A stretch of DNA of 64,000 bases from Bacteroidota bacterium (GTDB lineage Bacteria; Bacteroidota; Bacteroidia; Bacteroidales; FEN-979). A model generated the notes under the pieces. That model had not been told where the DNA came from. It worked only from the letters and a program-made list of their open reading frames with translations, and did not search any database. How positions within the stretch are numbered: position 1 is the stretch's first letter; each line of letters starts with the position of its first letter. Location of the stretch: positions 17,294 through 81,293 of the forward strand of contig JBAXLI010000008.1 in NCBI GenBank assembly GCA_037134895.1, written 5' to 3'. Below, piece by piece: positions 15,073 to 31,483 of this stretch. The translations under genes were made by a program, and so were the position numbers.

Positions 15073-15088
15073 TCTGATTTGCAAAGCC

Positions 15089-18000
15089 ATGAAGAAACCT
15101 GAAAAAATCAAAGAATTTTTTGCTACCAGCTGGGCAATCGACAACAGGGCGAGTATTTATGTACTTACGATAATTATTACCATGCTGGGAGTGATATCCT
15201 ACATGAATATACCGAAAGAGCAGTTCCCCGAAATTGTCATCCCAACCATCATAGTTAACACAGCCTATCCCGGGACCTCTCCCGAGGATATGGAGAACCT
15301 TGTGACCCGGCCGATCGAAAAACAGGTAAAATCCCTGCAGAACGTCAAGAAGATCAGTAGTAATTCCATTCAGGATTTTTCCTCCATCGTAGTCGAGTTC
15401 ACGACCGGCATTCCGGTACCTGAAGCCAAGCAGAGGGTCAGGGATGCAGTTGACAAGGCTAAATCAAGCCTTCCGAACAACCTGCCGAAGGACCCTGATA
15501 TCGCCGAGGTTGACATCTCCGAAATACCTATCATGAACATCAACCTCTCGGGTGATTACGACCTGCAAAGGCTGAAGAAATATGCCGAAGAAGCCCAGGA
15601 CAAGATTGAAACGCTGCCTGAAATAACAAGGGTGGATATCGTAGGGGCGCTTGACAGGGAGATCCAGGTCGATGTTGATATGTACAAGATGCAGGCGGCC
15701 AGCGTATCGTTCAGGGATATCCAGAATGCTATCGCCGCTGAAAACGTCACGGTGTCGGCAGGTAATATCACCAACTACGGGATGAAACGCACGCTCAGGG
15801 TCACCGGACAGTTCAAATCTCCGGCTGAGATCAATGACATCATCCTCAAGTCGTCCAGCGGAGCTACGGTATATATCAAAGATATCGCCGAAATAAAGGA
15901 TTCATATAAGGACCAGGAGAGTTTTGCCCGTTTTGAAGGCAAGAATGTGATCACACTGAATGTGATCAAGAAAAGCGGGGCAAACCTTCTGAATGCCTCC
16001 GACAAGATCAAGGATTTTATCAGTGACCTCAAAAAGAATTCTTTCCCTCCTGATCTTAAAGTCGAACTTACCGGTGAACAGTCAAGGTTTACACGCAGCA
16101 CACTGGAGGAGCTTAATAACACCATCATTATAGGCTTCCTGCTCGTTACTCTTGTTCTCATGTTTTTCATGGGTCTGAACAACGCATTCTTTGTTGCCAT
16201 GTCAGTTCCCTTATCGATGTTTGTGGCCTATCTTGTGATGCCCGGGCTGGGTTTTACCATGAATATGATCGTCATGTTCGGGTTCATTTTCGCCCTGGGT
16301 ATCATTGTCGATGATGCTATCGTTGTGATAGAAAACACCCACCGTATTCACCGGTTTATTCCGGATATAAAAACGGCGGCGAAACATGCTGCCGGGGAGG
16401 TCTTTCTGCCTATCCTGTCGGGAACGCTTACAACCCTGGCACCGTTCTTTCCACTGGTATTCTGGCCGGGCATTGTAGGGAAATTTATGCATTATCTGCC
16501 GGTTACCCTTATTTTGACACTGTTCGCCTCATTATTTGTGGCATATATCATCAACCCGGTATTTGCGGTCACTTTCATGAAACATGAATATGATGGCAAT
16601 GAATACAAGTTAAGGAAAAAGCCATTCCTTGTCAGCAGTATTATCCTGGGAGTCCTGGCTGCCTTGTTTTACCTGGCCGGTGTGTTTTTCATGGGGAACC
16701 TGCTTGCATTTGCCCTCATCCTCAACCTGGTTTACCGTTTGTGGATTAAAAATGCGATAATCGCGTTTCAGAGCAGATTATGGCCTGCCGTCCTGAATTT
16801 CTATGAAAAGCAGCTCCGGTTCTTTCTCAGGGGCCGTAATCCATATTACCTCTTCGCAGGCGTAATAGTGCTTTTTTTCTTCACGATTTATCTTTACGGC
16901 TTGTTCAAACCCCAGGTGTTGTTCTTCCCGAATAACAATCCGGCAACGATCAATATCTTTATAAAGATGCCGGTTGGGACAGACCAGAATGTAACCGACT
17001 CGGTAACCCGGATCGTCGAATCAAAGGTAGTTGCAACATTGGGCAAGGATAATCCCATTGTTGAGTCCATCATCGCCAATGTTGGATTCGGGGCAGGGGA
17101 AAGTTTCTTCGACCGTTCCATTTCGCCTGAAAAAGGCAAGGTCACTGTGGGCTTTGTTGAAAGCAAGGACCGCAAGGGAGTCAGGACTCTTGATTATATG
17201 GATCAGATCAGGAAGAATGTACAGAATATCCCCGGAGCCACGATTTCGGTTGAGAAGAACAAAATGGGACCACCCACCGGGAAGCCCATCAATATTGAGA
17301 TCACCAGTGATAACATCACTGACCTGATAAGTACTTCCAGGGATTTTCTCGGATACCTCGATTCACTCCAGATCCCCGGTATCGATAAGCTAAGGTCTGA
17401 TTTTGATGAAAGCAAGCCGGAAATCGTTCTTGAAGTTGACCGTATAAGGGCAAACCGTGAAGGCATCACTGTTGGGCAGATCGGAATGGAACTGCGGACT
17501 GCCATATACGGTTACGAAGCATCCAAGTACAAAGAGGATGAGGACGAATATCCCATCCAGGTAAGGTACTCCCAGGCTCAGCGTAAGAATATCAACAATG
17601 TAATGAATGCAAAGATCACCTATCGCGACATGAACAGCGGCCAGCTCAGGCAGATACCTATTTCGGCTGTAACCAAAGTCGATTACAAGGATACTTACGG
17701 AGGGATCAAACGAAAGAACCTCAAACGCGTCATTACATTATCTTCGGATGTTACCTCAGGACATACTGCCAATGAAGTTCTGGCAAACATCGGCGCTGCG
17801 CTTAAAACCTATAAACTTCCGAAAGGCGTTGAAGTGAATTTTACCGGTGAGCAGGAAGACCAGGCTGAAACTATGAAGTTCCTTATCAATGCAATGATCA
17901 TTGCACTCGGAATGATATTTTTCATCCTTATCACCCAGTTTGGCAGCCTCAGTAAAAGCCTCATCATCCTCAGCGAAGTTATTTTCAGCATCATTGGGGT

Positions 18001-18481
18001 TTTCATTGGAATGATTATTTTCAAGATGCCTTTTGTCATAACCATGACAGGCATCGGAATTGTAGCCCTGGGAGGTATTGTTGTCAGAAACGGGATCCTA
18101 ATCGTCGAGTTTGCCGATGTGTTAAAGGCCGAAGGGAAAACAACCCTCGAAGCCATCGTTGGCGCCGGCAAGACAAGGATTACCCCGGTTGCGCTTACAG
18201 CTACAGCAACCATGCTTGGGCTGGTACCACTCGCGGTGGGGTTCAACATCAATTTTGTTACCCTGTTCACCAAACTGAATCCTCATATATGGGTAGGGGG
18301 GGATAATGTGATGTTCTGGGGGCCTCTCTCATGGACAATTATCTTCGGCCTCAGCTTTGCAACCTTCCTGACCCTGATCTTTGTCCCGGCCCTGCTGCTG
18401 ATTGATGCAAAAGCCAAAGCCGGGTGGAGAAGGAAGCAGGAACTGAAACGGTACAGGAAACTACAGGCGAAGAAGGCTTGA
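15089..18481 (+). CDS. RND efflux transporter permease (AcrB/AcrD/AcrF family)
   Basis: Start trimmed to ATG 15089. 1130 aa with a 12-TM topology and two large periplasmic loops. Typical RND motifs are present (..ALGIIVDDAIVVIEN.., ..GIVVRNGILIVEF..). Confidence 0.9.
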   Translation: MKKPEKIKEFFATSWAIDNRASIYVLTIIITMLGVISYMNIPKEQFPEIVIPTIIVNTAYPGTSPEDMENLVTRPIEKQVKSLQNVKKISSNSIQDFSSIVVEFTTGIPVPEAKQRVRDAVDKAKSSLPNNLPKDPDIAEVDISEIPIMNINLSGDYDLQRLKKYAEEAQDKIETLPEITRVDIVGALDREIQVDVDMYKMQAASVSFRDIQNAIAAENVTVSAGNITNYGMKRTLRVTGQFKSPAEINDIILKSSSGATVYIKDIAEIKDSYKDQESFARFEGKNVITLNVIKKSGANLLNASDKIKDFISDLKKNSFPPDLKVELTGEQSRFTRSTLEELNNTIIIGFLLVTLVLMFFMGLNNAFFVAMSVPLSMFVAYLVMPGLGFTMNMIVMFGFIFALGIIVDDAIVVIENTHRIHRFIPDIKTAAKHAAGEVFLPILSGTLTTLAPFFPLVFWPGIVGKFMHYLPVTLILTLFASLFVAYIINPVFAVTFMKHEYDGNEYKLRKKPFLVSSIILGVLAALFYLAGVFFMGNLLAFALILNLVYRLWIKNAIIAFQSRLWPAVLNFYEKQLRFFLRGRNPYYLFAGVIVLFFFTIYLYGLFKPQVLFFPNNNPATINIFIKMPVGTDQNVTDSVTRIVESKVVATLGKDNPIVESIIANVGFGAGESFFDRSISPEKGKVTVGFVESKDRKGVRTLDYMDQIRKNVQNIPGATISVEKNKMGPPTGKPINIEITSDNITDLISTSRDFLGYLDSLQIPGIDKLRSDFDESKPEIVLEVDRIRANREGITVGQIGMELRTAIYGYEASKYKEDEDEYPIQVRYSQAQRKNINNVMNAKITYRDMNSGQLRQIPISAVTKVDYKDTYGGIKRKNLKRVITLSSDVTSGHTANEVLANIGAALKTYKLPKGVEVNFTGEQEDQAETMKFLINAMIIALGMIFFILITQFGSLSKSLIILSEVIFSIIGVFIGMIIFKMPFVITMTGIGIVALGGIVVRNGILIVEFADVLKAEGKTTLEAIVGAGKTRITPVALTATATMLGLVPLAVGFNINFVTLFTKLNPHIWVGGDNVMFWGPLSWTIIFGLSFATFLTLIFVPALLLIDAKAKAGWRRKQELKRYRKLQAKKA

Positions 18482-18682
18482 TGCGGGATGCAAGATGCAG
18501 GATGCAGGATGCGGGATGCAGGATGTGGGATGCAGGATGCGGGATGCAGGATGCGGGATGCAAGATGCAGGATGTACGGATTACGATGTACGAATTAGTA
18601 TGGGTTCGCAGCACCTTAGCAGCCCTGGTAAGTGTGCTGCGAAGCAACAACAAATCCCTAATCCCTAATCCCCAATCCCCAA
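18480..18682. repeat. Heptamer array locus L2: class C x13, degenerate class B' x4, core stem-loop, class A' x4
   Basis: Class C runs 18480..18570 as GATGCRR x13. Then 18571..18598 reads GATGTAC GGATTAC GATGTAC GAATTAG. The core lies within 18599..18650. Class A' runs 18651..18682 as ATCCCTA x2 then ATCCCCA x2. The first unit overlaps the RND stop TGA (18479..18481), and the last unit ends 1 nt before the TolC stop. Confidence 0.95.
18605..18643. other. Core stem-loop of the composite element (L2 copy)
   Basis: TTCGCAGCAC (18605..18614) pairs perfectly with GTGCTGCGAA (18634..18643). An inner CTTA/TAAG pairing extends the stem. Confidence 0.75.
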
Positions 18683-20071
18683 CTAAAACTGCTCAAGCAG
18701 CTTGTTCAGCCTTGTTTTCTGGCTCAGGACCATAAAAATAGACTGCATGTAGTTATTGTTCGCGGTGAGAAACTGTGAGTACCTCTGGTTGAGGTCAGTA
18801 CTTGAAGAAAGCCCCTGGCGGTACTTCGTCATAGTTTTAGTATAAATCTTCATGGCGATGTCAAATCCTTTCTTCTGGTTGAGGTAGATCGCATAGGCAT
18901 TACTGAAATCTTTCTTCGCAGTTTCAACCTGTAATTCAAGCCCCACCCTCATCTTCTCATCGGTAACCTTGGTTTTTTCAACGTTCAGTCTTGCCTGGTC
19001 AACCGCATATTTTCTGCTGCCGCTGCTCCAGATGGGAACTGTAAGCGAGATCCCCCAGCTTGATGTTTTATACCATGGATAGTGATAGTCGGTAAAATTC
19101 CATTCTTCTCTCTGGGCGGAGGTTGAGATGCCGATATAACCTCCAAGTGACGGCTGATAGGCAGTCTTCGAAAGCTTGTATTGCATGAGGACCAGGTAAT
19201 CGCTCTTTTTAAGTAAAGTGTAATCGATATTCCTGGTATAATCAAAAGCCTGATTCACTAAAACGTCGCGGTTTACCTGCGCGAGAAAATAATCCAGGTT
19301 GTTTGTAAGTATAAGCTCCTGCTCATCTTTCAAACCGATCACGAACTTCAGGTTTGCATAGGCGATATTACGGCTGCTCCTGACATCGGTAAGCTGGGCT
19401 TCCAGGTTGGATCGGTTCAGGTCGGCCTGGTCAACATCTATGTCTTCAATAAGCCCCTGGACCTGGGCTGCTTTTGCCTCTTCAACAAGCCTGCTTACCA
19501 CTACATATGTGGAGTCAAGGATCTTGATCGCCTCATCGGTCACAAGTAACTGGTAATATGCTGTGGCAACGATATCGCGGATGTCAACCTTGTCTTTCAG
19601 ATTCTTTTGCTTGGCGGTTTCAAGGTAAGCCTTGGCAGTCTGCAATCCAACAAGGTACTGTCCGCTGTAGATCAGCTGGGTCAGCTGCAGGCCTGCGTTG
19701 ATATTATATTTCATGCCAAACTGCATGTCGAGATAATCAGGAGCCTGTGCATACTTCACCGGGTCCATCGCTTTCAGGAAGTTAGGTAACACCGAAGTGG
19801 GAAGGCTCAGGTAATCAACATATGATGCACTTCCGTTGATCTGTGGAAGCCCGATTGCGGTGTTCTGCTTGACCATTTTGCCAGCGATTGTAACATCAGT
19901 TGCCGAATTCTTGAGGTCGTAATTATTCTCAAAAGCAAATTCCTGGGCCTGCTGCAGAGAGAATGAAACCACTGTTTTTTGCTTCACCCGGCTCTGGGCA
20001 GCCAGGTATGTAGTATGACAAGTCAGCAACACCAATACGATGCACCAAAGTTTATTGAAAGTGAAGTACAT
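18683..20071 (-). CDS. TolC-family outer-membrane efflux protein
   Basis: 462 aa with a signal peptide and the duplicated alpha-helical/beta-barrel repeat typical of OEP/TolC (..YLETAKQ.., ..LNRSNLEAQL..). It is convergent with the RND pump. Confidence 0.8.
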   Translation of the reverse strand: MYFTFNKLWCIVLVLLTCHTTYLAAQSRVKQKTVVSFSLQQAQEFAFENNYDLKNSATDVTIAGKMVKQNTAIGLPQINGSASYVDYLSLPTSVLPNFLKAMDPVKYAQAPDYLDMQFGMKYNINAGLQLTQLIYSGQYLVGLQTAKAYLETAKQKNLKDKVDIRDIVATAYYQLLVTDEAIKILDSTYVVVSRLVEEAKAAQVQGLIEDIDVDQADLNRSNLEAQLTDVRSSRNIAYANLKFVIGLKDEQELILTNNLDYFLAQVNRDVLVNQAFDYTRNIDYTLLKKSDYLVLMQYKLSKTAYQPSLGGYIGISTSAQREEWNFTDYHYPWYKTSSWGISLTVPIWSSGSRKYAVDQARLNVEKTKVTDEKMRVGLELQVETAKKDFSNAYAIYLNQKKGFDIAMKIYTKTMTKYRQGLSSSTDLNQRYSQFLTANNNYMQSIFMVLSQKTRLNKLLEQF

Positions 20072-20086
20072 TGCTTATACGGATTT

Positions 20087-20701
20087 TTATAAGTTCAGAT
20101 TTATTTTTTTTGTTTCATAATAGGCCAGTCCTATTTCGGTGGCTATACCACGGATGAAATTATCGATCATCACATCGAAAATCGTGCGGAAAGAAAATTT
20201 CTCGGCCGGGAAAAACTCAGGATTATGAAGATCCATCAACCGGCGGATATATAAACGGGAAACAAGTTCCACACTCAGATCGGTGCGGTACATGCCCTGG
20301 CTGATGCCTTTGGTCATATTGATCTGGATCTTCTGGAAGACAAAATCAATCCTTTCATCAACGTGCTTATGATAGATCTCGGGATAATATTTTTTCAGAT
20401 CAAAGGTCATTGACGGACTAATATCCCTGAAATGCTCACCTAACTCCTTGCTGACAGTGAGCAGTATGTCAATAGCATTAACACCATCAAAATTATATTG
20501 AGCAAATATTACTTCGAAACTCTGACGCTCCAGTTCCAGGAGCTTTTCAACAAGTTCATGCTTGCTCTTAACAAATTCATACAGCTTCTTCTTCGACAAA
20601 CCAAGATCTCTGCAGATATCATCTATGGAAACAGACCTGACTCCGTATTTGAAAAAGAGTTCCCTTACCCTTTCCAATATGTCTTTCAGTGTGTTATCCA
20701 T
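20087..20701 (-). CDS. TetR/AcrR-family transcriptional regulator
   Basis: 204 aa. HTH: YGVRSVSIDDICRDLGLSKKKLYEFVKSKHELV. It shares KKYYPEIY with the paralogue at 11164..11787 (RKYYPDLY). Confidence 0.8.
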   Translation of the reverse strand: MDNTLKDILERVRELFFKYGVRSVSIDDICRDLGLSKKKLYEFVKSKHELVEKLLELERQSFEVIFAQYNFDGVNAIDILLTVSKELGEHFRDISPSMTFDLKKYYPEIYHKHVDERIDFVFQKIQINMTKGISQGMYRTDLSVELVSRLYIRRLMDLHNPEFFPAEKFSFRTIFDVMIDNFIRGIATEIGLAYYETKKINLNL

Positions 20702-20845
20702 GATCCGAAGATAAAAAAAGAAACTTTATTTGAGGTTGCAAAGATAGGAATTTCCGGAATTGAGAAACAAAACACTTACAAAAAGTTTCTTTAAGATCCC
20801 TGCAGCCATTCATAGGAAAGCGGTAAATGCATGTTCCTGATTTAG

Positions 20846-20853
20846 TAATTTTG
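20846..20853 (+). promoter_or_regulatory. Match to the Bacteroidetes -7 promoter element (TAATTTTG) upstream of the M14 peptidase gene
   Basis: The motif lies 18 nt upstream of ATG 20872. Confidence 0.3.
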
Positions 20854-20871
20854 GCACATAAATAGAAACTG

Positions 20872-22707
20872 ATGAAGCGAGCAATATATATTCTCATTCT
20901 GAGCTTTGGATTTGTAACAGGGTTCGGTGAGCAGGACTGGCTTACCTGGTATGAACGTTCAGGAGGAAAAGAAACCCCCGGCTATCGTCAAACCGTTGAA
21001 TACTGCAAACGATTAGCGTCAGCTTCTCCCATGGTTCATTACTCAAGCTTCGGCAAGAGCGCGAGAGGGCTTGATCTTCCCCTGCTGATTGTCGACAGGG
21101 ACGGGCTCACCGACCCTGAAGCCATCCGCAGAAAAGGGAGGATCATACTTCTGCTGCAGGCATGCATTCATCCGGGTGAGAGTGAAGGGAAGGACGCAGG
21201 GTTGATGCTGGTCAGGGACATGGTCATTCCAGATGGAGGCAAGATTAAACATGAAGTTTCAAGGTATGGCCATCCGGCTACAGTCCCTGGAATGCAAAAA
21301 CTCCTTGACGGAGTTTCCCTTGTTTTTATCCCGGTCTTCAACGTTGACGGTCATGAACGTTTTGGTCCGTACAACCGGATCAACCAGAACGGTCCTAAGG
21401 AAATGGGCTGGAGGGTAAATGCCAATAATCTGAATCTGAACCGTGATTACCTCAAGGCCGAAACTCCTGAAATGAAGGCCTGGCTTAAGCTTTTTGATCA
21501 CTGGATGCCCGATTTTTTTATCGATACGCATACCACCGATGGTGCCGACTATCAGTATGTACTGACTTATCTCGTGGAGCTCTACGGCGATATGGATGAA
21601 GGCCTCACTTCATGGGCAAAGGATATGTATATACCCGAAATGAAGGAACATCTTTTAAACAGCGGGTTCCCGGCCTTTCCTTACGTGAATTTCAGGAAAT
21701 GGCATGATCCGAAAAGCGGACTTATCAGCAGCGTGGCGCCTCCCATGCTCTCGCAGGGGTATACAGCATACAGGAACCGCCCGGGCCTGCTTATCGAAAC
21801 ACATATGCTCAAGCCTTATGACAAACGCGTTGAGGGAACGTATGAATGCATTAAAACAAGTATGGAGATCCTGGGGAAACAGGGCAGGCAGCTTCAGAAA
21901 CTGGAAGAAGAGGCCGATCGTTTCCTGATTTCAGGGGAATTCCTGAAAACTCCTTTCCCGCTTCAGTTTGAAACCAGTATGAAAGACAGCGTAGTTGCCG
22001 ATTTTCTGGGGGTTGAGTACAAAGCAGTGAAAAGCGATATCAGCGGAGGGGAATGGATACAATACAGCAATATACCTGCTACTTTTAAAATACCTTATTT
22101 CTCCAAGGCCAGCCCTGTGGTATCAGTCAGTCTCCCGTACGCTTATATCATCCCTGCCGAGTGGAAGGAGATCATTACAACCCTGGAGCTTCATGGAGCA
22201 ATTGTGCATCTGACAAGGCGGGATACGGTCATCAGCATACAGACATATAAATTCAAAAACCCGAAATGGCAGCAGAATCCTTACGAAGGGCATCATGTGA
22301 TGACGAACATCGAATATGATGAGATCACTGAATCCCGCCTGATCCCGCGAGGTTCCGCTGTTGTGGTGCTGAACCAGCAATGCGGGAGGATCATCCCGCA
22401 TTTCCTTGAACCCAAAGGCAGCGGGTCTATGCTCTACTGGGGCTATTTTGATGCAGTGTTCGAACAGAAGGAATATGCCGAAAATTATGTGCTTGAGCAG
22501 CTTGCGGTTAAAATGCTGAACGATAGTCCGGCCCTTGGAATAGAATTTACAGCAAAAAAAGCAGCCGATACTTCCTTCGCGAAATCCCCCCAGCAGATCC
22601 TGAACTGGTTTTATTACCGCTCGCCATACGCCGACAGCCGTAAGGGAATTTACCCGGTGGCAAAAGTCGATGACAAGAAGGTGCTGGATGTCATGCTGAA
22701 ACAGTAG
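20872..22707 (+). CDS. M14-family zinc carboxypeptidase-like protein
   Basis: 611 aa with a signal peptide, an HxxE zinc motif (CIHPGESEG) and NVDGHERF / NLNRDY motifs typical of M14. Confidence 0.7.
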   Translation: MKRAIYILILSFGFVTGFGEQDWLTWYERSGGKETPGYRQTVEYCKRLASASPMVHYSSFGKSARGLDLPLLIVDRDGLTDPEAIRRKGRIILLLQACIHPGESEGKDAGLMLVRDMVIPDGGKIKHEVSRYGHPATVPGMQKLLDGVSLVFIPVFNVDGHERFGPYNRINQNGPKEMGWRVNANNLNLNRDYLKAETPEMKAWLKLFDHWMPDFFIDTHTTDGADYQYVLTYLVELYGDMDEGLTSWAKDMYIPEMKEHLLNSGFPAFPYVNFRKWHDPKSGLISSVAPPMLSQGYTAYRNRPGLLIETHMLKPYDKRVEGTYECIKTSMEILGKQGRQLQKLEEEADRFLISGEFLKTPFPLQFETSMKDSVVADFLGVEYKAVKSDISGGEWIQYSNIPATFKIPYFSKASPVVSVSLPYAYIIPAEWKEIITTLELHGAIVHLTRRDTVISIQTYKFKNPKWQQNPYEGHHVMTNIEYDEITESRLIPRGSAVVVLNQQCGRIIPHFLEPKGSGSMLYWGYFDAVFEQKEYAENYVLEQLAVKMLNDSPALGIEFTAKKAADTSFAKSPQQILNWFYYRSPYADSRKGIYPVAKVDDKKVLDVMLKQ

Positions 22708-22709
22708 GT

Positions 22710-25094
22710 TTATGCGACTTCGATCCCTGTTTCGCCGGGGATGAACCTTCCAATCACTGAAGAAAAGTTAAAACCTTCTGCCGCAAGGGCTGCAACTGCC
22801 TCTTCAGCCTGCTCAGCGGGCAATGCAACCAGAAGTCCGCCTGAAGTCTGTGCATCGGCAAGAAGTATCTTCACCATTTCTGGCACTGAAGGTCTGCAAT
22901 GAAGAATGCTCCCTGCAAACTCGAGGTTGCTGATGGTCCCGCCGGGGATCATCCCTGCAACTGCATACTCCCATGCCGAACTCAGCAAAGGCAATTTTTC
23001 CCATTCCAGCAACGCCCTGAGCTCGCCTGCCGAAAGCATTTCTTTAAGATGTCCGAGCAAACCAAAGCCCGTCACATCGGTGCACGCATGTATATCATAG
23101 TTCATCAGAAGTTCGGCCGGCCGTTTGTTAAGAGCCGACATCACTTCAATCGCCTCCTTTGCCGATTCGGGGCTTGCAAACCCCCTTTTTACAGCAGTGC
23201 TTACAATCCCCGTCCCAATAGGCTTTGTAAGAAGCAATGCATCCCCGGCCCTGGGTGTGGAATTTCTCCAGATCCGGTCGGGATGCACTTCCCCGCTTAC
23301 AACGAAGCCGAATTTCGGTTCTTCGTCTTCAATACTATGACCGCCTAAGATCGGAATCCCTGCTTCAGCCGCTTTATCCGATGCTCCCCTGAGGATCTCC
23401 TGGAGCACTTCAAACGGCAGCCGTTTTTCGGGGAAGGCAACAATACTCAGTGCAAAAAGGGGCCGCCCTCCCATAGCCCAGATATCGCTTAGCGCATTCG
23501 CTGCAGCAATAGCCCCATAATAATAAGGATCGTCAACCACCGGGGGAATGAAATCGACTGTTTGTACCAGGGCGGTGTCCTCGCTTAAACGGTAAACGGC
23601 AGCATCATCAGAAGTCTCGGTCCCCACCAGTATATTTTTCCCGGCCGGGCGGGGAATGGTCTTCAATATCTTTTCAAGAGCCTGTGGCCTGATCTTGCAT
23701 GCACAGCCCAGTGAATGCGTGTATTCGGTTAATTTAATCGGTTTTAAACTGACTGCGGATGAGGGAGGGTTTTCATCACCTCCTGCCTGTTCCCCGCCTG
23801 GCGTGAGGCCTGGCTTTTCAGTCTTTTCAAACAGATGCAGGAGTTTCCCCGGGAGGGTCCTTCCGCTGATAATCTCAACCGCAAAGTCGATTTCTTCTTC
23901 AGTGCTCATCCTCCCTGTCGAAAACCTTATCGTACCCAGCGCATAATCACGGGGGACCTGCATTGCCAGTAAAACCTGTGAGATCGTTTCCAGCCCGGCA
24001 TGGCAGGCTGCCCCGGCCGAAGCTGCAAGTCCTCTCCAGTCATTCAGAAGGGCTGAAGCATCCTTTCCCCTGAACCCGAGGCTGAGCGTATTCGGAAGCC
24101 GTTTTTCGGGATGGCCGTTCAGCCTTGCATCGGGGAATGCCTGGAGAATACCATCGTGGAGGCGATCCCTCAGTGTTTGCAGGGGATTGGGGGTTGGGGA
24201 TTGGGGGTTGGGGATTGGGGGTTGGGGATTGGGGATCCGGTCTTCATTAGTAACTCGTAACTCTTCATTCGTAATTCGTAATTCGTAATTCGTAACTCGT
24301 AACTCGTCATTCGTCATTCGTAACTCGTAACTCCTAATTATCTCCGCCGATTTCCCCATGCCTGCAATGCCCATGATATTTTCAGTGCCTGCCCTGAGGT
24401 TCTGCTCATGCCCCGCCCCGTGAAGTATTTTACTGAGCTTTATCCCCCTGCGGCAATAAAGGGCTCCGACCCCTTTGGGTGCATAGAATTTGTGAGCCGC
24501 AACCGACAACAGGTCGGCGTTCATGGCAACCACATCTACGGGGATCTTCCCAACCGACTGTGCAGCGTCACAATGGAATACGATCCCGTGCTCTCTTGAG
24601 ATCCTGCCTATGTCTTCAACCGGCTGTATCGTTCCCACCTCGTTATTCGCATGCATGATGCTGGCAAGAATGGTATCGGGCCTGATTGCTTTTCTGAAAT
24701 CATCGGGATTTATCATCCCCTTTTCATCGACCGGAAGATAGGTGATCTCAAAACCCATGCCCGACAAAAACCGGCAAACCTCTGTTACTGCCGGGTGTTC
24801 AACCATGGATGTGATGATATGCCTGCCTTTCCCGGCATAGGCAAATGCATAGCCCTTAAGAGCAAGATTGTTCGATTCGGTTCCTCCTCCTGTAAGAATG
24901 ATCTCGTCGGGCCTTGCATTCAGTGCAAGTGCCAGCTCCCGGCGGCCAGCTTCGATTGCTTTCCGCGCTAGAATTCCGAATTCATGGGAACTTGAAGGAT
25001 TGCCGAAGAGTTCTCCCAAAAACGGTCTCATCTCCTCCGCAACCCGCGGGTCCAGGGGGGTGGTGGCATTATAATCAAGATATACTGCTTTCAT
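22710..25094 (-). CDS. selD: Fusion protein: NifS/IscS-like cysteine desulfurase (N-terminal) + selenophosphate synthetase SelD (C-terminal), interrupted in frame by a heptamer-array segment
   Basis: 794 aa. The N-terminal domain (MKAVYLDYNATTP...HKFYAPKGVG...SAGAACH) is class-V aminotransferase/NifS-like. The C-terminal domain (..LGCACKIRPQALEKIL.., ..GGHSIED.., ..DVTGFGLLGHL.., ..AQTSGGLL..) is SelD, with Cys rather than Sec at the active site. Residues [51 protein letters not shown] are encoded by repeat locus L3. Confidence 0.85.
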   Translation of the reverse strand: MKAVYLDYNATTPLDPRVAEEMRPFLGELFGNPSSSHEFGILARKAIEAGRRELALALNARPDEIILTGGGTESNNLALKGYAFAYAGKGRHIITSMVEHPAVTEVCRFLSGMGFEITYLPVDEKGMINPDDFRKAIRPDTILASIMHANNEVGTIQPVEDIGRISREHGIVFHCDAAQSVGKIPVDVVAMNADLLSVAAHKFYAPKGVGALYCRRGIKLSKILHGAGHEQNLRAGTENIMGIAGMGKSAEIIRSYELRMTNDELRVTNYELRITNEELRVTNEDRIPNPQPPIPNPQSPTPNPLQTLRDRLHDGILQAFPDARLNGHPEKRLPNTLSLGFRGKDASALLNDWRGLAASAGAACHAGLETISQVLLAMQVPRDYALGTIRFSTGRMSTEEEIDFAVEIISGRTLPGKLLHLFEKTEKPGLTPGGEQAGGDENPPSSAVSLKPIKLTEYTHSLGCACKIRPQALEKILKTIPRPAGKNILVGTETSDDAAVYRLSEDTALVQTVDFIPPVVDDPYYYGAIAAANALSDIWAMGGRPLFALSIVAFPEKRLPFEVLQEILRGASDKAAEAGIPILGGHSIEDEEPKFGFVVSGEVHPDRIWRNSTPRAGDALLLTKPIGTGIVSTAVKRGFASPESAKEAIEVMSALNKRPAELLMNYDIHACTDVTGFGLLGHLKEMLSAGELRALLEWEKLPLLSSAWEYAVAGMIPGGTISNLEFAGSILHCRPSVPEMVKILLADAQTSGGLLVALPAEQAEEAVAALAAEGFNFSSVIGRFIPGETGIEVA
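24182..24338. repeat. Heptamer array locus L3 (inside nifS-selD): class A x8, a 3-nt joint, class B x14
   Basis: Positions 24182..24237 alternate GGGGATT/GGGGGTT x8. Positions 24241..24338 hold 14 in-phase units (TCGTAAC/TCGTAAT/TCGTCAT/TCTTCAT variants). The region is read on the minus strand as part of the CDS. Confidence 0.95.
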
Positions 25095-26119
25095 AATGTT
25101 TCCTTGAATCTGAGCAAAATCTGACTTGCATGGTGGCGGGCATCGGAACCTTCAAGCCTGATGCCTGTGATATCCTTATTCTTCCGCTTATCTATTGCCT
25201 TCTGGTAAGCCTTGTCATAATATTCGAGAACGAAATCTGCAACCTCTGCGAAATCACCTTCTCCGAGTGCCTCCAGTGCAAGTTTCGAGCGGGAACCGCC
25301 GAGGCCATCATGTATCTTTATTATTGCTGCTGCAAGCATCTCTTTCGGGAAACATGAATATTCCTCAACCAGCCTGTCAATCCGCAGTGTCTTATCCATG
25401 AAAACCTGGATCATCCTGGCTTCGGAGATTTGTTCGAAAACCGGGGGAGGCAGCGCAACCCTGCCAATGCTGCGGCTCTCATCTTCAAGCCAGATCCTTT
25501 TTGTTAAATCCATGCCCGACCAGATCCTGTAAAGTTCATTCTCAAACTGCTCGTTGGTTGGCTGGGGCCTTTGTCCGAGAGCTCCAAACACCGATCCCTT
25601 ATGGGAAGCAAGATGTTCAAGGTCAATGACCTGTTCCCCTTTATCGGCCAGGGCTGCAAGAATCTCAGTCTTTCCGCAGCCTGTAAAACCTCCCAGCACA
25701 ATAATGTTCGCTTTTGCTGAAAATGAGTCCCTGATAAAATGACGGTATGCCTTGTATCCTCCCTCGAGCAGGATCACGCTATATCCTGCTTTCCTGAAGA
25801 CTTCGGCCATCATCTCGCTCCTCATTCCGCCTCTCCAGCAGTGTATGGCAAGTTTTTTTCCCTGTACTTCCTTTCTCACTGATCTGATATACCCTGAAAC
25901 TTTGGGAAGGGCAATATCCAGCCCTTTGAGAATGGCTTGTTCGCGACCCTGCTTATGGTATAAAGTCCCAATCACTGATCTTTCCTCATCATTGAACAGT
26001 GGGATGTTCATTGAACCTGGGATATGTCCCTCTGCAAATTCAGCGGGAGAACGAACATCCGCCAAACAGTATTCATCAGCAAGGGAGAGGAAAACAGCTG
26101 CACTCACTTTTTGTATCAT
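25091..26119 (-). CDS. selU: tRNA 2-selenouridine synthase (SelU/MnmH/YbbB)
   Basis: It has a rhodanese domain with CWRGGMRS and a P-loop GFTGCGKTE. There is a 4-nt overlap with the nifS-selD start. Start set at ATG 26119; the track's start at 26149 is TTG and remains possible. Confidence 0.8.
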   Translation of the reverse strand: MIQKVSAAVFLSLADEYCLADVRSPAEFAEGHIPGSMNIPLFNDEERSVIGTLYHKQGREQAILKGLDIALPKVSGYIRSVRKEVQGKKLAIHCWRGGMRSEMMAEVFRKAGYSVILLEGGYKAYRHFIRDSFSAKANIIVLGGFTGCGKTEILAALADKGEQVIDLEHLASHKGSVFGALGQRPQPTNEQFENELYRIWSGMDLTKRIWLEDESRSIGRVALPPPVFEQISEARMIQVFMDKTLRIDRLVEEYSCFPKEMLAAAIIKIHDGLGGSRSKLALEALGEGDFAEVADFVLEYYDKAYQKAIDKRKNKDITGIRLEGSDARHHASQILLRFKETL

Positions 26120-26233
26120 GGCAGGGATCCGGAATGTTTCGTTTTGCAAAGCTAATCAATCACAAATATATTATTATTAGTACTTTTATCCTCCTCAAAT
26201 CAGGCTTCGGAAGAGGCCGAATGTACTTCTGGC

Positions 26234-28519
26234 GTGAACGATAAGCTGAAAACACTTGCGAATCAAAGGTGGACTTTCCCATTCATTATGGTCCTTCTTC
26301 TCATCATTACACTTTCGGTGAGGATGTTGTCGGATCCCGACCTTGGCACTCATCTCAGCGGGGGCAGGTGGATCGCCGAACACCACACGGTACCTCACAA
26401 GGACTTTTCGACCTACACAGTAACTGATCACCGGTACATCGATATTTACTGGGTTTTCCAGCTCCTCGTATATGGGATGTATTCGCTGGGGGGGTATGCT
26501 GGTCTGAGCCTGCTGGTGACCACTCTGAGCCTGATCCTCTTCTTACTTCTTTCCTACCGGAATCAGAACGAAAAAATTCCTACCGGGATCGGTATCTTTC
26601 TGCTGATGTTTGCTTTCCTCGTAATTGAGCCAAGGTTGATTCTCAGGCCCGAGCTGTTTACCTACATCTTCATAGTATGCCTGGTTTTTATTCTCGATCT
26701 TTATAACTCACGGCAAAAGGACCTGCTGTTTCTTCTCCCCTTTATCATGCTTGTATGGTGCAATATGCAGGGCCTTTTCGTGCTCGGGCTGGGTATAATC
26801 GTGATTTACTTTGCAGGGAAATTTATTTCAGACCGTAAACCTGATTACAGGCTGGGTTTGATCCTCCTTGCTTCTGTTCTTGCTTGTCTTGTAAATCCCT
26901 ATTTTTACAGGGGCTTCCTTCTGCCTTTTGAACTCTTCTCCCGCCTGGAGGGTGAAAACATTTTCCATCAGCATATCAGGGAGCTGAGTTCTTTCGCTTC
27001 TCCCGACAGGATGTTTTTCAAGGATTTTCTTTTCCTTGCCTGGTCGCTGCTCTGCTTTATTTCTTTTCTTTTCAGCTGGCGGATGAGGAAGGTTCATGAA
27101 GGGCTGCTGATGCTTGTTTTCTTTTACCTTGCCGTCATCTCAGTGAGAAATATCCCCTTGTTTGTTGTCATCTCAATTCCGGTTGCAGGTCGTTCGCTGA
27201 ATGATATCAGAACCGGGCTGGCCGGTAAGATGAATGGAAAGCTCATCCCTGCAGCCCGTAAACTTGCCTGGTGGCTTTGTATCCTGATCCCTGTTCTTTT
27301 AATTCCCAGGCTACTCACGAATTCTTATTACAGGGAGAATCAGTCCAACTCAAAAACCGGGCTGGGTATCGACAAATGGTATCAGCCGGTGAGGGTGGCG
27401 GATTTTATTAAGGATAATTATCTGAATGTCAGGTTCGTCAATAGTCTTGCTTTTGGCGGATGGCTTGGTTGGAGCCTGCAGCAGCCTGTTTTCATCGACG
27501 GCCGCCTGGAGGTCATGAAGGATGAGTTGTATACAGAAGTCGTTAACAGCTGGGACGGCAAATTGCCTGCTCTTTTAAGCAAGTATAAACCTGGTTTGAT
27601 CGTCTACAATTACCTGAAGTATTATCCCTGGACTGTGCAGTTGAAAACAATGACCCATTGGCAACTGGTTTATGCCGACGGTTTCAGTGCCGTATTCGCC
27701 GAAGATGGACTGGCAGGAGGCACCCCTGGCCTGATAAGGCTTGATTCAGTCATGGTATCCGGCTTGATGAATAAGGATGTTGTCAAAATCAGGGAAACTT
27801 TGTTGCGAAAACCCTTTACCACGGCGATGAAAAGCTGGCTTTGGGGTTATTACAGGCCTTTTGACTATGCTAATGAAGAAACCCTGAACAAGGCTTCGCT
27901 GATGTTTCAGCTTGGCTTGTACGAGGCTGCCGAGATGTTGTTCCTGCAGTATCTTGATAAGGCTGATGGACAGAATTTTACTGTTTTTTACGCTCTTGCC
28001 GATATCTACCGGTATATAGGGACAAACGACCTGGCCCGGATATGCTGTAACCGTATACTTGAAGTTGATCAGAAGGATGCAGCCGCTATCAGAACAATAG
28101 AAGAGCTTGATAAGGCACCGCCTTTCTCCCCTCCAGCCGGAATTAAGCAAACATCTGAACCTGATGCTGTAAGTTCCTTTAACCGGGGCAACGATTATTT
28201 CAGGAACGGCCTGCCTGATAAAGCGCTGGAAGCATATAATGAAGCTCTCAAGATTAGTCCGGGCTACATCAAAGCCCTTAACAACCGTGGAATATTACTG
28301 GCATCATCCTTCAGGAGATATAAGGAGGCTATTGCAGATTTTTCTGAGGTGATAAAAATTGATCCGGCCAATGCCGATGCATGCCTTGGAAGAGGTTCAT
28401 GTTATTTTCAGCTCAACGAAACCGGCAAGGCCTGTAAGGACTGGGAAAAGGCATTCGGTCTGGGGAAGCAGGAAGCTGGAGTATTGCTTCAGCAACATTG
28501 CGGCTCGCAAAGAAAATAA
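26234..28519 (+). CDS. Polytopic membrane protein with C-terminal TPR repeats (possible GT-C-type glycosyltransferase-like)
   Basis: 761 aa. It has about 10-12 TM helices in the first 350 aa, and TPR-like repeats at the C-terminus (..ALEAYNEALKISPGYIKALNNRGILL.., ..AIADFSEVIKIDPANADACLGRGSCYF..). The start is GTG and uncertain. Confidence 0.55.
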   Translation: MNDKLKTLANQRWTFPFIMVLLLIITLSVRMLSDPDLGTHLSGGRWIAEHHTVPHKDFSTYTVTDHRYIDIYWVFQLLVYGMYSLGGYAGLSLLVTTLSLILFLLLSYRNQNEKIPTGIGIFLLMFAFLVIEPRLILRPELFTYIFIVCLVFILDLYNSRQKDLLFLLPFIMLVWCNMQGLFVLGLGIIVIYFAGKFISDRKPDYRLGLILLASVLACLVNPYFYRGFLLPFELFSRLEGENIFHQHIRELSSFASPDRMFFKDFLFLAWSLLCFISFLFSWRMRKVHEGLLMLVFFYLAVISVRNIPLFVVISIPVAGRSLNDIRTGLAGKMNGKLIPAARKLAWWLCILIPVLLIPRLLTNSYYRENQSNSKTGLGIDKWYQPVRVADFIKDNYLNVRFVNSLAFGGWLGWSLQQPVFIDGRLEVMKDELYTEVVNSWDGKLPALLSKYKPGLIVYNYLKYYPWTVQLKTMTHWQLVYADGFSAVFAEDGLAGGTPGLIRLDSVMVSGLMNKDVVKIRETLLRKPFTTAMKSWLWGYYRPFDYANEETLNKASLMFQLGLYEAAEMLFLQYLDKADGQNFTVFYALADIYRYIGTNDLARICCNRILEVDQKDAAAIRTIEELDKAPPFSPPAGIKQTSEPDAVSSFNRGNDYFRNGLPDKALEAYNEALKISPGYIKALNNRGILLASSFRRYKEAIADFSEVIKIDPANADACLGRGSCYFQLNETGKACKDWEKAFGLGKQEAGVLLQQHCGSQRK

Positions 28520-28552
28520 TCATAACTTTGCAGCTCAATTTTAGGTCCTTCC

Positions 28553-30454
28553 ATGAGCGATTATATTCATCATGAATGCGGGATAGCCCTCGTAAGACTT
28601 TTAAAGCCACTGGAATTCTACCTGGCTAAATACGGAACTGCTTTTTATGGCCTGAACAAGCTGCATCTCCTGATGGAAAAGCAACATAACCGCGGGCAGG
28701 ATGGGGCAGGGGTTGCAGCAATTAAATTCGACCTTGAACCCGGCAACCGGTTTATTCACGCGCTTCGTTCCAATGCTGAGTCTCCCATCCAGGATATTTT
28801 CGGTAAGATCAATAAGAAACTAAAAGATATAGAAGAACGTCATCCTAAGAACCTGCTGGATATTCAATGGCTGAAGCAGAACATCGATTTCATGGGCGAG
28901 TTGTACCTGGGCCACCTCAGGTACGGGACTTTTGGCAAGAACTCAACCCTCAGCCTGCATCCTTTTGTTCGCGAGAATAACTGGCTTACTAAAAATCTGG
29001 TCGTTGCAGGGAATTTCAACCTGACCAATGTTGACGAACTTTTTAACAAGCTCATCGACCTTGGTCAATACCCTATTGAAACTTCTGATACGATTACCAT
29101 TCTTGAGAAGATCGGTCATTTTCTTGATGAGGAAAATGAAGAACTTTACTGGAAATTCAAGAACCTTGGATTCAAGAAGCGAGAGATCACAGTTGAAATC
29201 GCAAGGAACCTGAATGTACAGAAGATCCTGAGAAGATCAGCAAAATACTGGGACGGAGGTTATGTGATTGCCGGGATGTTTGGACACGGAGATGCTTTCG
29301 TGATGAGAGACCCTTCAGGAATACGTCCGGCTTTCTATTTCAGGAATGATGAAATTGTTGTTGTGACTTCCGAAAGGCCGGTGATCCAGACCGTGATGAA
29401 CGTATCTATTGATTCAGTGCATGAACTTAAGCCGGGACATGCCCTGATTGTAAAGCAGGATGGCAGGGTCAGCGAGAAAGAATTTCATAAGCCGCTTGAG
29501 AAGAAATCCTGCTCTTTCGAGCGAATTTATTTTTCGAGGGGTACCGACAGGGATATCTACCAGGAAAGGAAGCAACTTGGAAGATTCCTTTCTCCGGGTA
29601 TTTTAAAAGCAATTGACTACGACCTTGACAATACAGTGTTTTCGTATATACCCAATACGGCAGTTGATGCTTATTACGGACTGATAGAGGAGATCGGCAA
29701 TTATTGCAATACAATTAAGGCCGATCGTATACTAAAGGCCGGGAAAAACCTTGACAGGGAGAAAATAGAAAAGATACTGAAGTTTCAGCCAAGGGCTGAA
29801 AAAGTCGCGGTCAAGGATTTGAAGCTCAGGACCTTCATCACGCAGGATTCCCAGAGAAACGACCTTGCCGCACATGTATATGATATAACCTACGGAAGTA
29901 TCAGGCCGGGCCTCGACAACCTGGTGATTCTGGATGATTCCATCGTTAGGGGAACTACCCTCAAGCAGAGCATTATAAGGATTCTAAGCCGGCTCGGACC
30001 AAGGAAAATCGTGATTGCTTCATCAGCTCCCCAGATACGTTTCCCCGACTGTTACGGCATCGATATGGCAAAGGTTGCAGATTTTATTGCATTTAAAGCT
30101 GCTATTGAGCTTCTCAGGGAAACACATCAGGAAGGAATCATTAATTCGGTTTACAAGAAATCAAAAGCCCAGGAAAAGCTTCAAAAGGAAAAAATTGTAA
30201 ACTACGTTAAGGAGATCTATCAGCCCTTCACTCCTGAACAAATTGCCGCCAAAGTTGCTGCACTGGTCACTCCTGAGAACTGTGGAGCAAGAGTAGAGAT
30301 TGTTTATCAGACTATCGAAGATCTGCATAAAGCCTGTCCAGGGCATACTGGAGACTGGTATTTCACAGGCAATTACCCCACTCCCGGAGGGAACAAGGTG
30401 TCGAACAAGGCCTTTATAAACTATATCGAGGGGAAAAACGTAAGAGCGTATTAA
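28553..30454 (+). CDS. purF: Amidophosphoribosyltransferase (long, Bacteroidota-type class II glutamine amidotransferase)
   Basis: 633 aa. It has an N-terminal nucleophile Cys after Met-propeptide-like residues (MSDYIHHECGIA), GHLRYGT, and the PRPP-binding motif LVILDDSIVRGTT. Confidence 0.8.
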   Translation: MSDYIHHECGIALVRLLKPLEFYLAKYGTAFYGLNKLHLLMEKQHNRGQDGAGVAAIKFDLEPGNRFIHALRSNAESPIQDIFGKINKKLKDIEERHPKNLLDIQWLKQNIDFMGELYLGHLRYGTFGKNSTLSLHPFVRENNWLTKNLVVAGNFNLTNVDELFNKLIDLGQYPIETSDTITILEKIGHFLDEENEELYWKFKNLGFKKREITVEIARNLNVQKILRRSAKYWDGGYVIAGMFGHGDAFVMRDPSGIRPAFYFRNDEIVVVTSERPVIQTVMNVSIDSVHELKPGHALIVKQDGRVSEKEFHKPLEKKSCSFERIYFSRGTDRDIYQERKQLGRFLSPGILKAIDYDLDNTVFSYIPNTAVDAYYGLIEEIGNYCNTIKADRILKAGKNLDREKIEKILKFQPRAEKVAVKDLKLRTFITQDSQRNDLAAHVYDITYGSIRPGLDNLVILDDSIVRGTTLKQSIIRILSRLGPRKIVIASSAPQIRFPDCYGIDMAKVADFIAFKAAIELLRETHQEGIINSVYKKSKAQEKLQKEKIVNYVKEIYQPFTPEQIAAKVAALVTPENCGARVEIVYQTIEDLHKACPGHTGDWYFTGNYPTPGGNKVSNKAFINYIEGKNVRAY

Positions 30455-30457
30455 AAG

Positions 30458-30518
30458 TTACGAATTACGAGTTACGAGTTTCGAATTATGGTTATTACAC
30501 TCGTCACTTGTCACTCAA
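30458..30518. repeat. Heptamer array locus L4: class B' x4-5, spacer, class B x3 (imperfect hairpin)
   Basis: TTACGAA TTACGAG TTACGAG TTTCGAA (30458..30485), then CACTCGT CACTTGT CACTCAA (30498..30518). It starts 4 nt after the purF stop. The last unit contains the HIT stop (30515..30517). Confidence 0.85.
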
Positions 30519-30907
30519 ATCGCTTCCGATATCTTCTTCGCAATAGCAGCCAGTTCCTCGTTTGTGAACTTCAGTTTTGGTTTGCGAAAATCCATATCAT
30601 ACATCGTCTTCAAAGGGATAAGATGGATATGGGTATGGGGCACTTCCAGGCCAATAACGGTGATACCTATCCGCTGACAGGGTACAACCTTTTCAATGGC
30701 CTTTCCAACTTTTTTTGCAAAATTCCATAAGCCCGCATGGAGATCGTTTTCCATATCAAAAATGTAATTGATCTCTTTTTTAGGAATTATAAGGGTGTGT
30801 CCTTCCTGAAGTGGATTGATATCCAGAAATGCGAGGTAATCATCATCTTCAGTGACTTTATGACAAGGGATCTCTCCGTTTACAATACGAGTGAAAATAC
30901 TGGCCAT
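30515..30907 (-). CDS. HIT-family (histidine triad) protein
   Basis: Start trimmed to ATG 30907 (MASIFTRIVNGEIPCHKV..). The histidine triad is VPHTHIHLIP. 130 aa. Confidence 0.85.
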   Translation of the reverse strand: MASIFTRIVNGEIPCHKVTEDDDYLAFLDINPLQEGHTLIIPKKEINYIFDMENDLHAGLWNFAKKVGKAIEKVVPCQRIGITVIGLEVPHTHIHLIPLKTMYDMDFRKPKLKFTNEELAAIAKKISEAI

Positions 30908-30908
30908 T

Positions 30909-31394
30909 TTAACTGTTTTGTCTTGATATTTCAATGATTTCAAATGCGATGCTTCCGGCCGGTATAGTGATCTCAACTTTTTCCCCCAGGGTTTTCCCAA
31001 GCAGGCCTTTTGCAATCGGAGAACTCACCGATAATTTGAAGACTTTGATATTGGCTTCATTCTCGGGTACCAGGGTGTAAGTTACAAGGCTTCCGTTTGT
31101 AGTGTTTCTAAGTTTCACGGTCGAGAAAATCAGAACTTTGGTGTTATCGAGTTTCTTTTCATCTATAAGACGGGCGTTACTTACGGTATCCTGAAGCTTG
31201 GAGATCTTAAGCTCAAGCATTGACTGGGCTTCTTTGGCAGCGGCATATTCGGCATTCTCTGACAGGTCGCCTTTATCCCTTGCTTCAGCAATCTGCCTTG
31301 AGATTGACGGTCTTTCAACCATTACCAATTGCTGCAGTTCATCTTTCAGTTTCTGCAGTCCTTCAGGGGTATAGTATTTAATATCCGTCGACAT
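30909..31394 (-). CDS. greA: Transcription elongation factor GreA
   Basis: Start trimmed to ATG 31394 (MSTDIKYYTPEGLQKLKDEL..). Motif ..ARDKGDLSENAEYAAAKE.. is present. 161 aa. Confidence 0.85.
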   Translation of the reverse strand: MSTDIKYYTPEGLQKLKDELQQLVMVERPSISRQIAEARDKGDLSENAEYAAAKEAQSMLELKISKLQDTVSNARLIDEKKLDNTKVLIFSTVKLRNTTNGSLVTYTLVPENEANIKVFKLSVSSPIAKGLLGKTLGEKVEITIPAGSIAFEIIEISRQNS

Positions 31395-31420
31395 AAGATT
31401 CAGGTTGAGATCATAATAAG

Positions 31421-31449
31421 GCAAAAGACCCTTTTAAAGGGTCCTTTGC
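31421..31449 (-). terminator. Candidate terminator hairpin downstream of the PorV-like gene
   Basis: GCAAAAGACCCTTT T AAAGGGTCCTTTGC is a near-perfect palindrome with 14-nt arms and one mismatch. It is intergenic once greA is started at 31394. Confidence 0.5.
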
Positions 31450-31483
31450 AAGAAAAAGAATTTCAGTGGAGCGTTCTAAGAGA

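Follow-up and report, generated by a model that had tools for sequence, protein, structure and literature searches.

A heptanucleotide repeat array in frame within the cysteine desulfurase domain of a Bacteroidota NifS-SelD fusion, probably tolerated and filtered by frame and stop codons

We analyzed a 64,000-nucleotide stretch of contig JBAXLI010000008.1 (hereafter the window) from a Bacteroidota metagenome-assembled genome (MAG), in which the nifS-selD fusion gene carries 22 contiguous seven-nucleotide units inside its cysteine desulfurase domain. These units are read in frame as a 51-residue insert of an otherwise ordinary enzyme. We consider it likely that the heptamer array is tolerated, translated and hypervariable, with frame and stop codons acting as the filter on what survives. 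For tandem repeats whose unit length is not divisible by three, the usual expectation is absence from genes or a role as frameshift switches; in nifS-selD, a 7-nt repeat appears to sit stably inside a catalytic domain, quantized by selection in three-unit steps, at one codon position across a clade.

The coding array and its place in the enzyme

The 22 heptamers run in a single phase along the coding strand, from 24335 to 24182, with 14 units of class B' followed by eight of class A' (Table 1). The B' units comprise the variants AGGAGTT, ACGAGTT, ACGAATG, ACGAATT, AAGAGTT, ACTAATG, and AAGACCG and read (R)SYELRM TNDELRV TNYELRI TNEELRV TNED; TRF reports this part at 24250-24337 with period 7, 12.6 copies, and 86% matches. 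The A' part is reported at 24182-24236 either with period 7 (7.9 copies) or with period 14 (3.8 copies, 100% matches), the plus-strand 14-mer being GGGGATTGGGGGTT. Both parts hold at least four head-to-tail copies of a 7-nt unit. On the plus strand, which is the template, the A' array consists of GGGGATT alternating with GGGGGTT and presents eight G tracts of at least four residues separated by loops of 2-3 nt, the arrangement of a Nostoc-type GGGGA(T/C)T unit with at least four consecutive G tracts. Since three heptamers make seven codons (3 x 7 nt), the encoded peptides have a period of seven residues (YELRxTN and NPQxPxP). Alternative frames across the insert hold stop codons, one in frame 1 and four in frame 2, and in the frame actually read, the TGA contained in ACGAATG/AAGAxxx units is out of phase. 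An original prediction, made from the sequence alone, had described an array read in frame within the cysteine desulfurase domain as the source of the periodic peptides, with two GACGAAT-type units phased so that their TGA is harmless. The open reading frame (ORF) list, TRF, and the phasing bear this out in all details, including coordinates, strand, unit classes, and translation, with codons 254-304 giving the peptide as written.

Table 1 Positions of the coding array, its host gene, and the other features discussed, in window coordinates
Feature	Position	Strand	Details
nifS-selD fusion gene	22710..25094	-	794 aa, intact ORF (ORF list; Pfam)
Class-V aminotransferase/cysteine desulfurase domain of nifS-selD	aa 1-~410		
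NifS-SelD linker	aa ~414-449		
Selenophosphate synthetase domain of nifS-selD	aa ~455-794		
51-residue repeat-encoded insert	24183..24335	-	codons 254-304, between ..GMGKSAEII and LQTLRDRLHDG..
B'-type heptamer array, 14 units	24238..24335	-	ACGAGTT/ACGAATT/ACGAATG plus degenerate ends
A'-type heptamer array, 8 units	24182..24237	-	GATCCCC, then AATCCCC/AACCCCC alternating as a perfect 14-nt double unit
selU gene	25091..26149	-	upstream of nifS-selD; rhodanese + AAA_SelU (Pfam), tRNA 2-selenouridine synthase type
4'-phosphopantetheinyl transferase ORF	43383..44366	+	arrays 43412-43518, 44004-44042, 44056-44144
A-class array in the transferase, AATCCCC/AACCCCC-type	44056..44144	+	in frame, 30 residues, orientation as in nifS-selD
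Intergenic composite	18480..18684	.	GATGCRG x13, GATGTAC-type, hairpin core, AATCCCY x4; comparison outside the reading frame

The host protein consists of Aminotran_5, AIRS, and AIRS_C domains (Pfam), a NifS-like cysteine desulfurase fused to SelD. Its exact 794-aa sequence is deposited as NCBI MEI6883612.1 from a Bacteroidota MAG, and orthologues carry the Joint Genome Institute (JGI) label 'cysteine desulfurase NifS/selenium donor protein'. The end of selU overlaps the start of nifS-selD by 4 nt, an operon context. The protein retains every position that does not vary among 120 orthologues, including H201-K202 (the pyridoxal phosphate (PLP) lysine motif), the catalytic C364, and the SelD motif G463-C464-x-C466-K467. 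The PLP lysine, the catalytic cysteine, AIRS/AIRS_C with the N-terminal Cys/Lys motif, and the structural matches described below identify a NifS-SelD fusion enzyme, and the intact ORF, invariant residues, and fold make the gene look functional. Fusions of this kind are reportedly already known from comparative genomics of selenium utilization, in work ascribed to Zhang and colleagues in 2008.

The insert interrupts an otherwise continuous alignment to cysteine desulfurases of known structure. In a phmmer search against PDB chains, query residues 2-253 correspond to residues 9-263 of cysteine desulfurase 9wep_A and query residues 305-407 to 274-378, with 51 insert residues standing where 9wep_A has 10; the alignment to E. 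coli IscS (1p3w) likewise runs to residue 255. These figures agree with the original prediction, which gave E. coli IscS about ten residues at this position. An AlphaFold2 model built with the 120 orthologues has a mean pLDDT of 85.7, falling below 50 at insert residues 264-296, which form a coil between helices 240-266 and 304-319, and rising to 86-97 in the flanks. The sole other long stretch of low confidence is the NifS-SelD linker, residues 414-449. Foldseek matches the N-terminal part of the model to NFS1/IscS/NifS structures (target TM 0.88-0.93, rmsd ~2.1-2.4 Å) and the C-terminal part to SelD 2yye (TM 0.94). The encoded repeat is thus predicted to be disordered with the host fold kept, and the structural check proposed with the original prediction, whether the insert maps to a surface loop, came out in its favor. 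In the model, the insert is a floppy surface loop where the large domain meets the small domain, an assignment of the junction that we take from established knowledge of IscS structure.

Alleles, sister species, and orthologues

Closely related strains differ in the A' array by whole multiples of three units. Locus L001 (protein P0001), from another metagenome, is 99.9% identical to window positions 18672..35094 (16.4 kb), with 18 single-nucleotide polymorphisms (SNPs), none of them in nifS-selD. The only indel is a 42-nt segment, equal to six heptamers or three AACCCCC-AATCCCC double units, that is missing from the A' array of L001, leaving two units there versus eight in the window; the B' array is identical. 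The 794-aa allele of the window recurs unchanged in three further assemblies (L005-L007), which show 0-13 SNPs over 12-20 kb, and was found on five contigs in the protein collection. An exact 26-nt flank search of JGI metagenome contigs for more alleles of this species gave 0 matches. Outside the reading frame, length changes regardless of frame: in L005 the intergenic GATGCRG array at 18480-18574 lacks 70 nt (10 units), and the composite that contains it (18480-18684) has other heptamers in L001 (CGTGACA) and one AATCCCT unit versus four. Copy number is therefore polymorphic between close strains by six units in the coding array and ten in the intergenic one. Contigs of other assemblies break at these arrays, with L006 ending at 18610 and the L001 contig within 18480-18670.

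A sister species with 72% identity and the same gene order has ~15 GATGTAC/GAAGGAC heptamers at the same codon, after ..AAEI, which read as TMYDVR[RC] repeats. Its alleles, drawn from 90% identity clusters and two JGI contigs, differ in how often a 21-nt triple unit is present (1, 2, 5, 6, or 7 times) and encode proteins of 753, 760, 781, 788, and 795 aa; the two JGI contigs, recovered by a flank search for the sister species, both carry the in-frame 6-copy allele. Because the sister array is a 21-nt higher-order repeat, its own slippage is frame-neutral. No N-terminal fragment ending in the array occurs among the members of the 90% identity clusters. Five candidates for frameshifted alleles (P0122, P0123, P0126, P0128, and P0129) were rejected, as all are C-terminal pieces. 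For P0123 (locus L004), the contig is 1.9 kb long, bounded by adapter sequence, and begins just past the array; the other four we read as truncated where their contigs stop.

Periodicity at the same two places extends across the family. Among the 120 orthologues, the loop segment from RAGTEN to LNGH has 44 residues in its plain form (range 39-87) and the NifS-SelD linker has 41-43 (range 35-98). At a lag of seven residues, the loop is 22% self-identical and the linker 16%, versus about 5% (4-8%) at other lags apart from 14 and a lag-7 baseline of 5.6% in the conserved N-terminal 230 residues. The periodic peptides include NYELRIT, YDLRFT, TMYDVRR, GEQGAGS/EQEAGNR, GYGIRDA, ISDFRFQ, and KSEIRNP/Q. 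Heptamers at both sites were confirmed on DNA from three other genera, with arrays at 8782-8809, 9173-9239, and 9296-9323 in L088 (GCA_026391835.1), at 9286-9366 in L089, and at 7654-7689 in L008. A B-type boundary motif, ..AEI-x-T-x-Y-[ED]-[LV]-R-x-T-[NDKT]-E-[DE].., is common to many orthologues, down to ~56% identity. Given the shared left and right boundary motifs, we regard the B' array as most probably old, with repeated expansion or contraction since. The perfect, polymorphic A' array is best read as a recent addition.

Searched against 5.8 billion proteins, the insert peptide matched only hypothetical ORFs of 40-82 aa (P0131-P0149), found in many metagenomes and in Capnocytophaga sp. 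H4358 and probably called spuriously across stop-free intergenic arrays. If so, the same unit family occurs in other Bacteroidota and pollutes protein databases. Such arrays have practical consequences in that they break assemblies, split Pfam matches, and yield spurious small ORFs.

Period-7 arrays across the window

An array was called wherever 18 or more of 21 positions match at the lag tested. This yields 15 arrays across the window for period 7 but zero for periods 5, 6, 8, 9, 10, and 11. By the same criterion, 80 loci around nifS-type genes of unrelated genomes, located by a profile search of genome contigs with the family alignment (the matches listed are all at most 53% identical), hold almost no period-7 arrays. 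At the peptide level, lag-7 periodicity is confined to two of the window ORFs of at least 120 aa, and none is found at lags 4-6 or 8-10. The units belong to few families (GGGGATT/AATCCCY, TTACGAR, and GATGCRG), and A-, B-, and C-class units recur dispersed at many loci, always at period 7.

Most arrays lie between ORFs or abut ORF ends, which fits purifying selection against coding insertions. The exceptions are three arrays inside two genes, nifS-selD and a phosphopantetheinyl transferase, as well as a stop-free array whose only effect is to lengthen a mechanical ORF ahead of where the transferase probably starts. In the latter gene, the A-class array splits the ACPS match (Pfam) in two stretches; the gene probably begins near 43608 (MPLILG), and the ORF reaches 43383 only because the ATCCTGC x14 array further upstream is free of stops. 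The original prediction had noted that only stop-free unit variants occur in the nifS-selD array. Across the window, TAA is present on the C-rich strand in seven of eight intergenic A-class arrays (AATCCCT units) and in neither of the two coding ones, a split that would arise with a chance of 3/45 = 0.07 if coding status were independent of stop content. B-class units have TAA on the opposite strand, so that they could be coding only in the orientation seen. The nifS-selD repeat lies within an unbroken ORF and avoids stop codons, as do the amino acid tandem repeats (aaTRs) of Borgs.

The intergenic arrays show several further features. Complementary arrays form inverted pairs at 41790-41880, 57420-57505, 56590-56680, 30450-30520, and 49761-49895, for example GGGGTTA/GGGATTA facing AATCCCT. 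Hairpins of such pairs reach -51.5, -41.5, and -27.5 kcal/mol (z -7.5, -5.9, and -3.1) and have a terminator-like look between gene ends; the pair at 30450 folds weakly (z -1.3). Several arrays begin at, or run over, the stop codon of the ORF that lies upstream of them (5191, 18479-18481, 41793-41797, 49740-49762, and 53362-53371): the TGA of ORF 4714..5193 is the start of a GATTGGG array, and that of ORF 15062..18481 the start of a GATGCGG array. G-rich heptamers in Xanthomonas and Nostoc are also placed at stop codons (PMC4692102). A hairpin core, TTCGCAGCA-loop-TGCTGCGAA(GC), lies between arrays at two loci only, 18605-18643 and 5252-5282; the pattern has 0 exact occurrences expected by chance, is missing from the coding array, and could represent a small dispersed element that accompanies the arrays. 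The idea that a composite A+B module transposed into the gene found no support: the intergenic composite at 5191-5357 has the same class order, but its spacer contains the hairpin core, and the gene is without the core. Unit variants at 57426-57453, 41793-41878, and 53362-53441 are identical to telomere repeats, with TTTAGGG (plant type) and GGGATTA/AATCCCT runs that contain TTAGGG. This identity is probably a coincidence, though it could confuse contamination or telomere screens.

Explanations weighed and comparison with known systems

Under the explanation that we favor, a few heptanucleotide families would populate the genome, a MAG related to Bacteroidales/Lentimicrobiaceae-type MAGs, as tandem arrays that gain and lose units fast, most likely by slipped-strand mispairing. 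Two sites in nifS-selD would be permissive. One is the NifS-SelD linker; the other is the turn at which the final helix of the large PLP domain gives way to the opening helix of the small domain. An array would persist in the gene where its orientation and unit variants are free of stop codons, its total length preserves the frame, and its peptide forms a surface loop that leaves the fold undisturbed; in-gene arrays failing in any of these respects would be eliminated, and survivors would change only by three units or multiples of three. The original prediction held that selection keeps the segment translatable. That the segment is stop-free and in frame stands, but selection would act on the gene and not on the insert: a stop codon or a frameshift in the array would abolish an enzyme in which all invariant residues are retained, which amounts to a survivorship filter. 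The insert itself most likely has no dedicated function and is a tolerated, fast-evolving by-product that creates new disordered sequence, its neutrality being deduced. Several points weigh against this explanation. Translation of the insert and activity of the protein bearing it we infer from sequence, and alleles with a frameshift are under-represented in consensus assemblies and called proteins alike. Growth of A' by one 14-nt double unit at a time would take it through states that are out of frame. Persistence at one codon across the clade, together with L088, L089, and L008, could reflect retention by selection and not mere tolerance; in these three loci all arrays detected within 16-19 kb lie inside nifS-selD, a count that is biased, as L088 and L089 were picked for their periodic peptides. 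This suggests that nifS-selD is a hot spot or refuge for heptamer arrays.

The on/off switch put forward in the original prediction, a contingency locus in which one or two heptamers (or one 14-nt double unit) are reversibly gained or lost and selenophosphate supply is switched in a subpopulation, is mechanically possible. The repeat lies within an ORF and its unit length is not divisible by three, A' is a perfect 14-nt x 4 repeat that is polymorphic between near-identical strains, and simulated changes of +/-7 or +/-14 nt truncate the protein at aa 306-354, short of SelD and of the full loop with the catalytic Cys364. The 2- and 8-unit alleles are three double units apart, with out-of-frame intermediates conceivable, and intragenic heptanucleotide repeats have been proposed as mediators of phase variation in Haemophilus influenzae (PMC2651432). 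However, all array-bearing alleles recovered are in frame, on ~6 contigs of this species and on ~17 multi-copy and >94 single-copy contigs of the sister species, so that no out-of-frame allele was seen beside the in-frame ones in a sample that is small and biased to intact ORFs, and the clusters lack truncated N-terminal members. Contingency tracts are usually long and perfect and lie close to the 5' end of genes for surface, restriction-modification, or host-interaction functions, whereas this one lies mid-gene (codons 254-304 of 794) in a metabolic enzyme of a conserved selU-nifS/selD operon, the B' array is imperfect, and only A' is perfect, and only as a 14-mer. The array remnant at the same codon down to ~56% identity implies long persistence, and the slipping unit of the sister species is the frame-neutral 21-nt triple unit. 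We therefore judge a switch improbable, and give equally little credence to the A' tract, with its G-quadruplex (G4)-prone template, being a true reversible switch whose 2- and 8-unit alleles are the ON states captured in consensus assemblies. Were it true, selenophosphate synthesis and selU-dependent tRNA selenation would be turned on and off in an environmental anaerobe, and phase variation would extend from surface genes in pathogens adapted to a host to a core trace-element pathway. Selenium use regulated in this way would be new, but our data give no indication of it. A weaker variant would have heptamer arrays as a standing engine for new disordered protein segments across this Bacteroidales clade.

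Alternatively, the insert might be retained for a benefit it confers, whether as a disordered loop of tunable length or a docking element in the protein or as a template-strand G4 that modulates transcription of the operon. Same-codon persistence over deep divergence, recurrence at just two sites of the gene, and the confinement of arrays to nifS-selD in three loci speak for such a role, although the selection of L088 and L089 biases that last count. Coding tandem repeats of Borgs have been argued to be selected disordered regions (PMC9879509). Both coding A-class arrays have the G-rich strand as template, as in ORF arrays of Nostoc, in which the G-rich strand of GGGGA(T/C)T repeats is preferentially non-coding (PMC4692102), but two of two is no significant strand bias. 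The peptides are wholly different by lineage (YELRITN, TMYDVRR, GEQGAGS, SRVTGHG, and KSEIRNP), with at most length or disorder conserved; many orthologues, Bacteroidota included, have the plain 44-residue segment; and 2- and 8-unit alleles coexist in near-identical strains. A useful insert thus seems unlikely to us, if worth keeping in mind. An artefact or pseudogene, whether from mis-assembled dispersed repeats, a decaying gene with an accidentally open frame, or a segment removed from RNA or protein, would fit the frequent breaks of contigs at heptamer arrays elsewhere (L006 and L001) and the end of the Aminotran_5 match at residue 266. Mis-assembly is ruled out by the identical allele in three other, independent assemblies. 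Decay is at odds with the intact ORF, the retention of every invariant column, the absence of SNPs in nifS-selD relative to strain L001, and the alignment of the C-terminal NifS part to PDB chains beyond the insert. We rejected an intron, ribozyme, or other RNA element, as Rfam gives no match in 23800-24700 at E<=1 and the insert mRNA folds no better than shuffled sequences (z +1.3, less structured), and also an intein, as the insert shows no intein motifs and its 51 aa are too short for one. The chance that the array is such an artefact appears very small indeed.

Returning to the tolerated, frame-filtered repeat, its parts resemble several known systems. The open-access full-text literature searched contains no in-frame heptamer array in a conserved enzyme domain, no three-unit quantization, no 21-nt form, and no two-site persistence in a clade; earlier descriptions of in-frame heptamer arrays in enzyme domains may nevertheless exist. 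The gene shares with known NifS-like/SelD fusions the Aminotran_5 + AIRS + AIRS_C architecture and an adjoining selU. It differs in that the canonical form has a 44-residue helix-turn-helix segment and a ~41-residue linker, whereas here and in the clade repeat-derived inserts occupy these places.

Heptanucleotides are the commonest class of long simple sequence repeats (LSSRs) in prokaryotes, in the wording by which PMC4679880 cites Mrazek 2007. In Nostoc PCC 7120, about a third of the short tandemly repeated repetitive (STRR) or GGGGA(T/C)T arrays are intragenic (Rehm et al. 2015, PMC4692102), and oligonucleotides from Nostoc, with the GGGGATT unit, and from Xanthomonas form G4 in vitro, as seen by circular dichroism (PMC4692102). 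The arrays described here share with LSSRs and cyanobacterial STRRs the 7-nt unit, the many dispersed arrays of few families, and the variable copy number. Their unit GGGGATT is the one enriched in Nostoc PCC 7120, the G4 here being a candidate known from sequence; as in Nostoc and Xanthomonas, arrays often start at or overlap stop codons and a minority are intragenic. The host here is a Bacteroidota MAG and not a cyanobacterium or xanthomonad, and the consequence for the protein is traced, with a periodic insert in an enzyme core, three-unit alleles, and persistence at one codon. Nearer in taxonomy are the composite intergenic heptamer assemblages of Bacteroidetes and Beggiatoaceae, built of TAACTGA and other units (MacGregor 2015, PMC4679880). 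These likewise include composite intergenic arrays in Bacteroidetes, with contig breaks inside them and close relatives that differ or are without arrays. Their units are different (TAACTGA does not occur here), and they are intergenic, proximal to start codons, and proposed to regulate translation, whereas the array in nifS-selD is coding and in frame.

Phase-variable loci, such as the tetranucleotide loci of H. influenzae and the heptanucleotides in hmw1A and a TonB-dependent receptor (PMC2651432), likewise have inside an ORF a repeat whose unit is not divisible by three, so that a change of one unit would shift the frame and truncate the product. In nifS-selD, by contrast, the alleles recovered are all in frame, the tract lies in the middle of a housekeeping-type metabolic gene of an environmental bacterium, one array is imperfect, and persistence is long. 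The aaTRs of Borgs (Schoelmerich et al. 2023, PMC9879509) resemble the nifS-selD array in their behavior, with a frame that is never broken, stops avoided, fast change between relatives, predicted disordered regions, and homologues with repeats at similar places. The unit lengths of ORF-internal Borg repeats are all divisible by three, whereas the 7-nt unit here is not and becomes frame-neutral only at 21 or 42 nt, and the same units here also form intergenic arrays. The nifS-selD array would offer a clean natural example of simple-sequence DNA turning into new, fast-evolving disordered protein sequence in bacteria.

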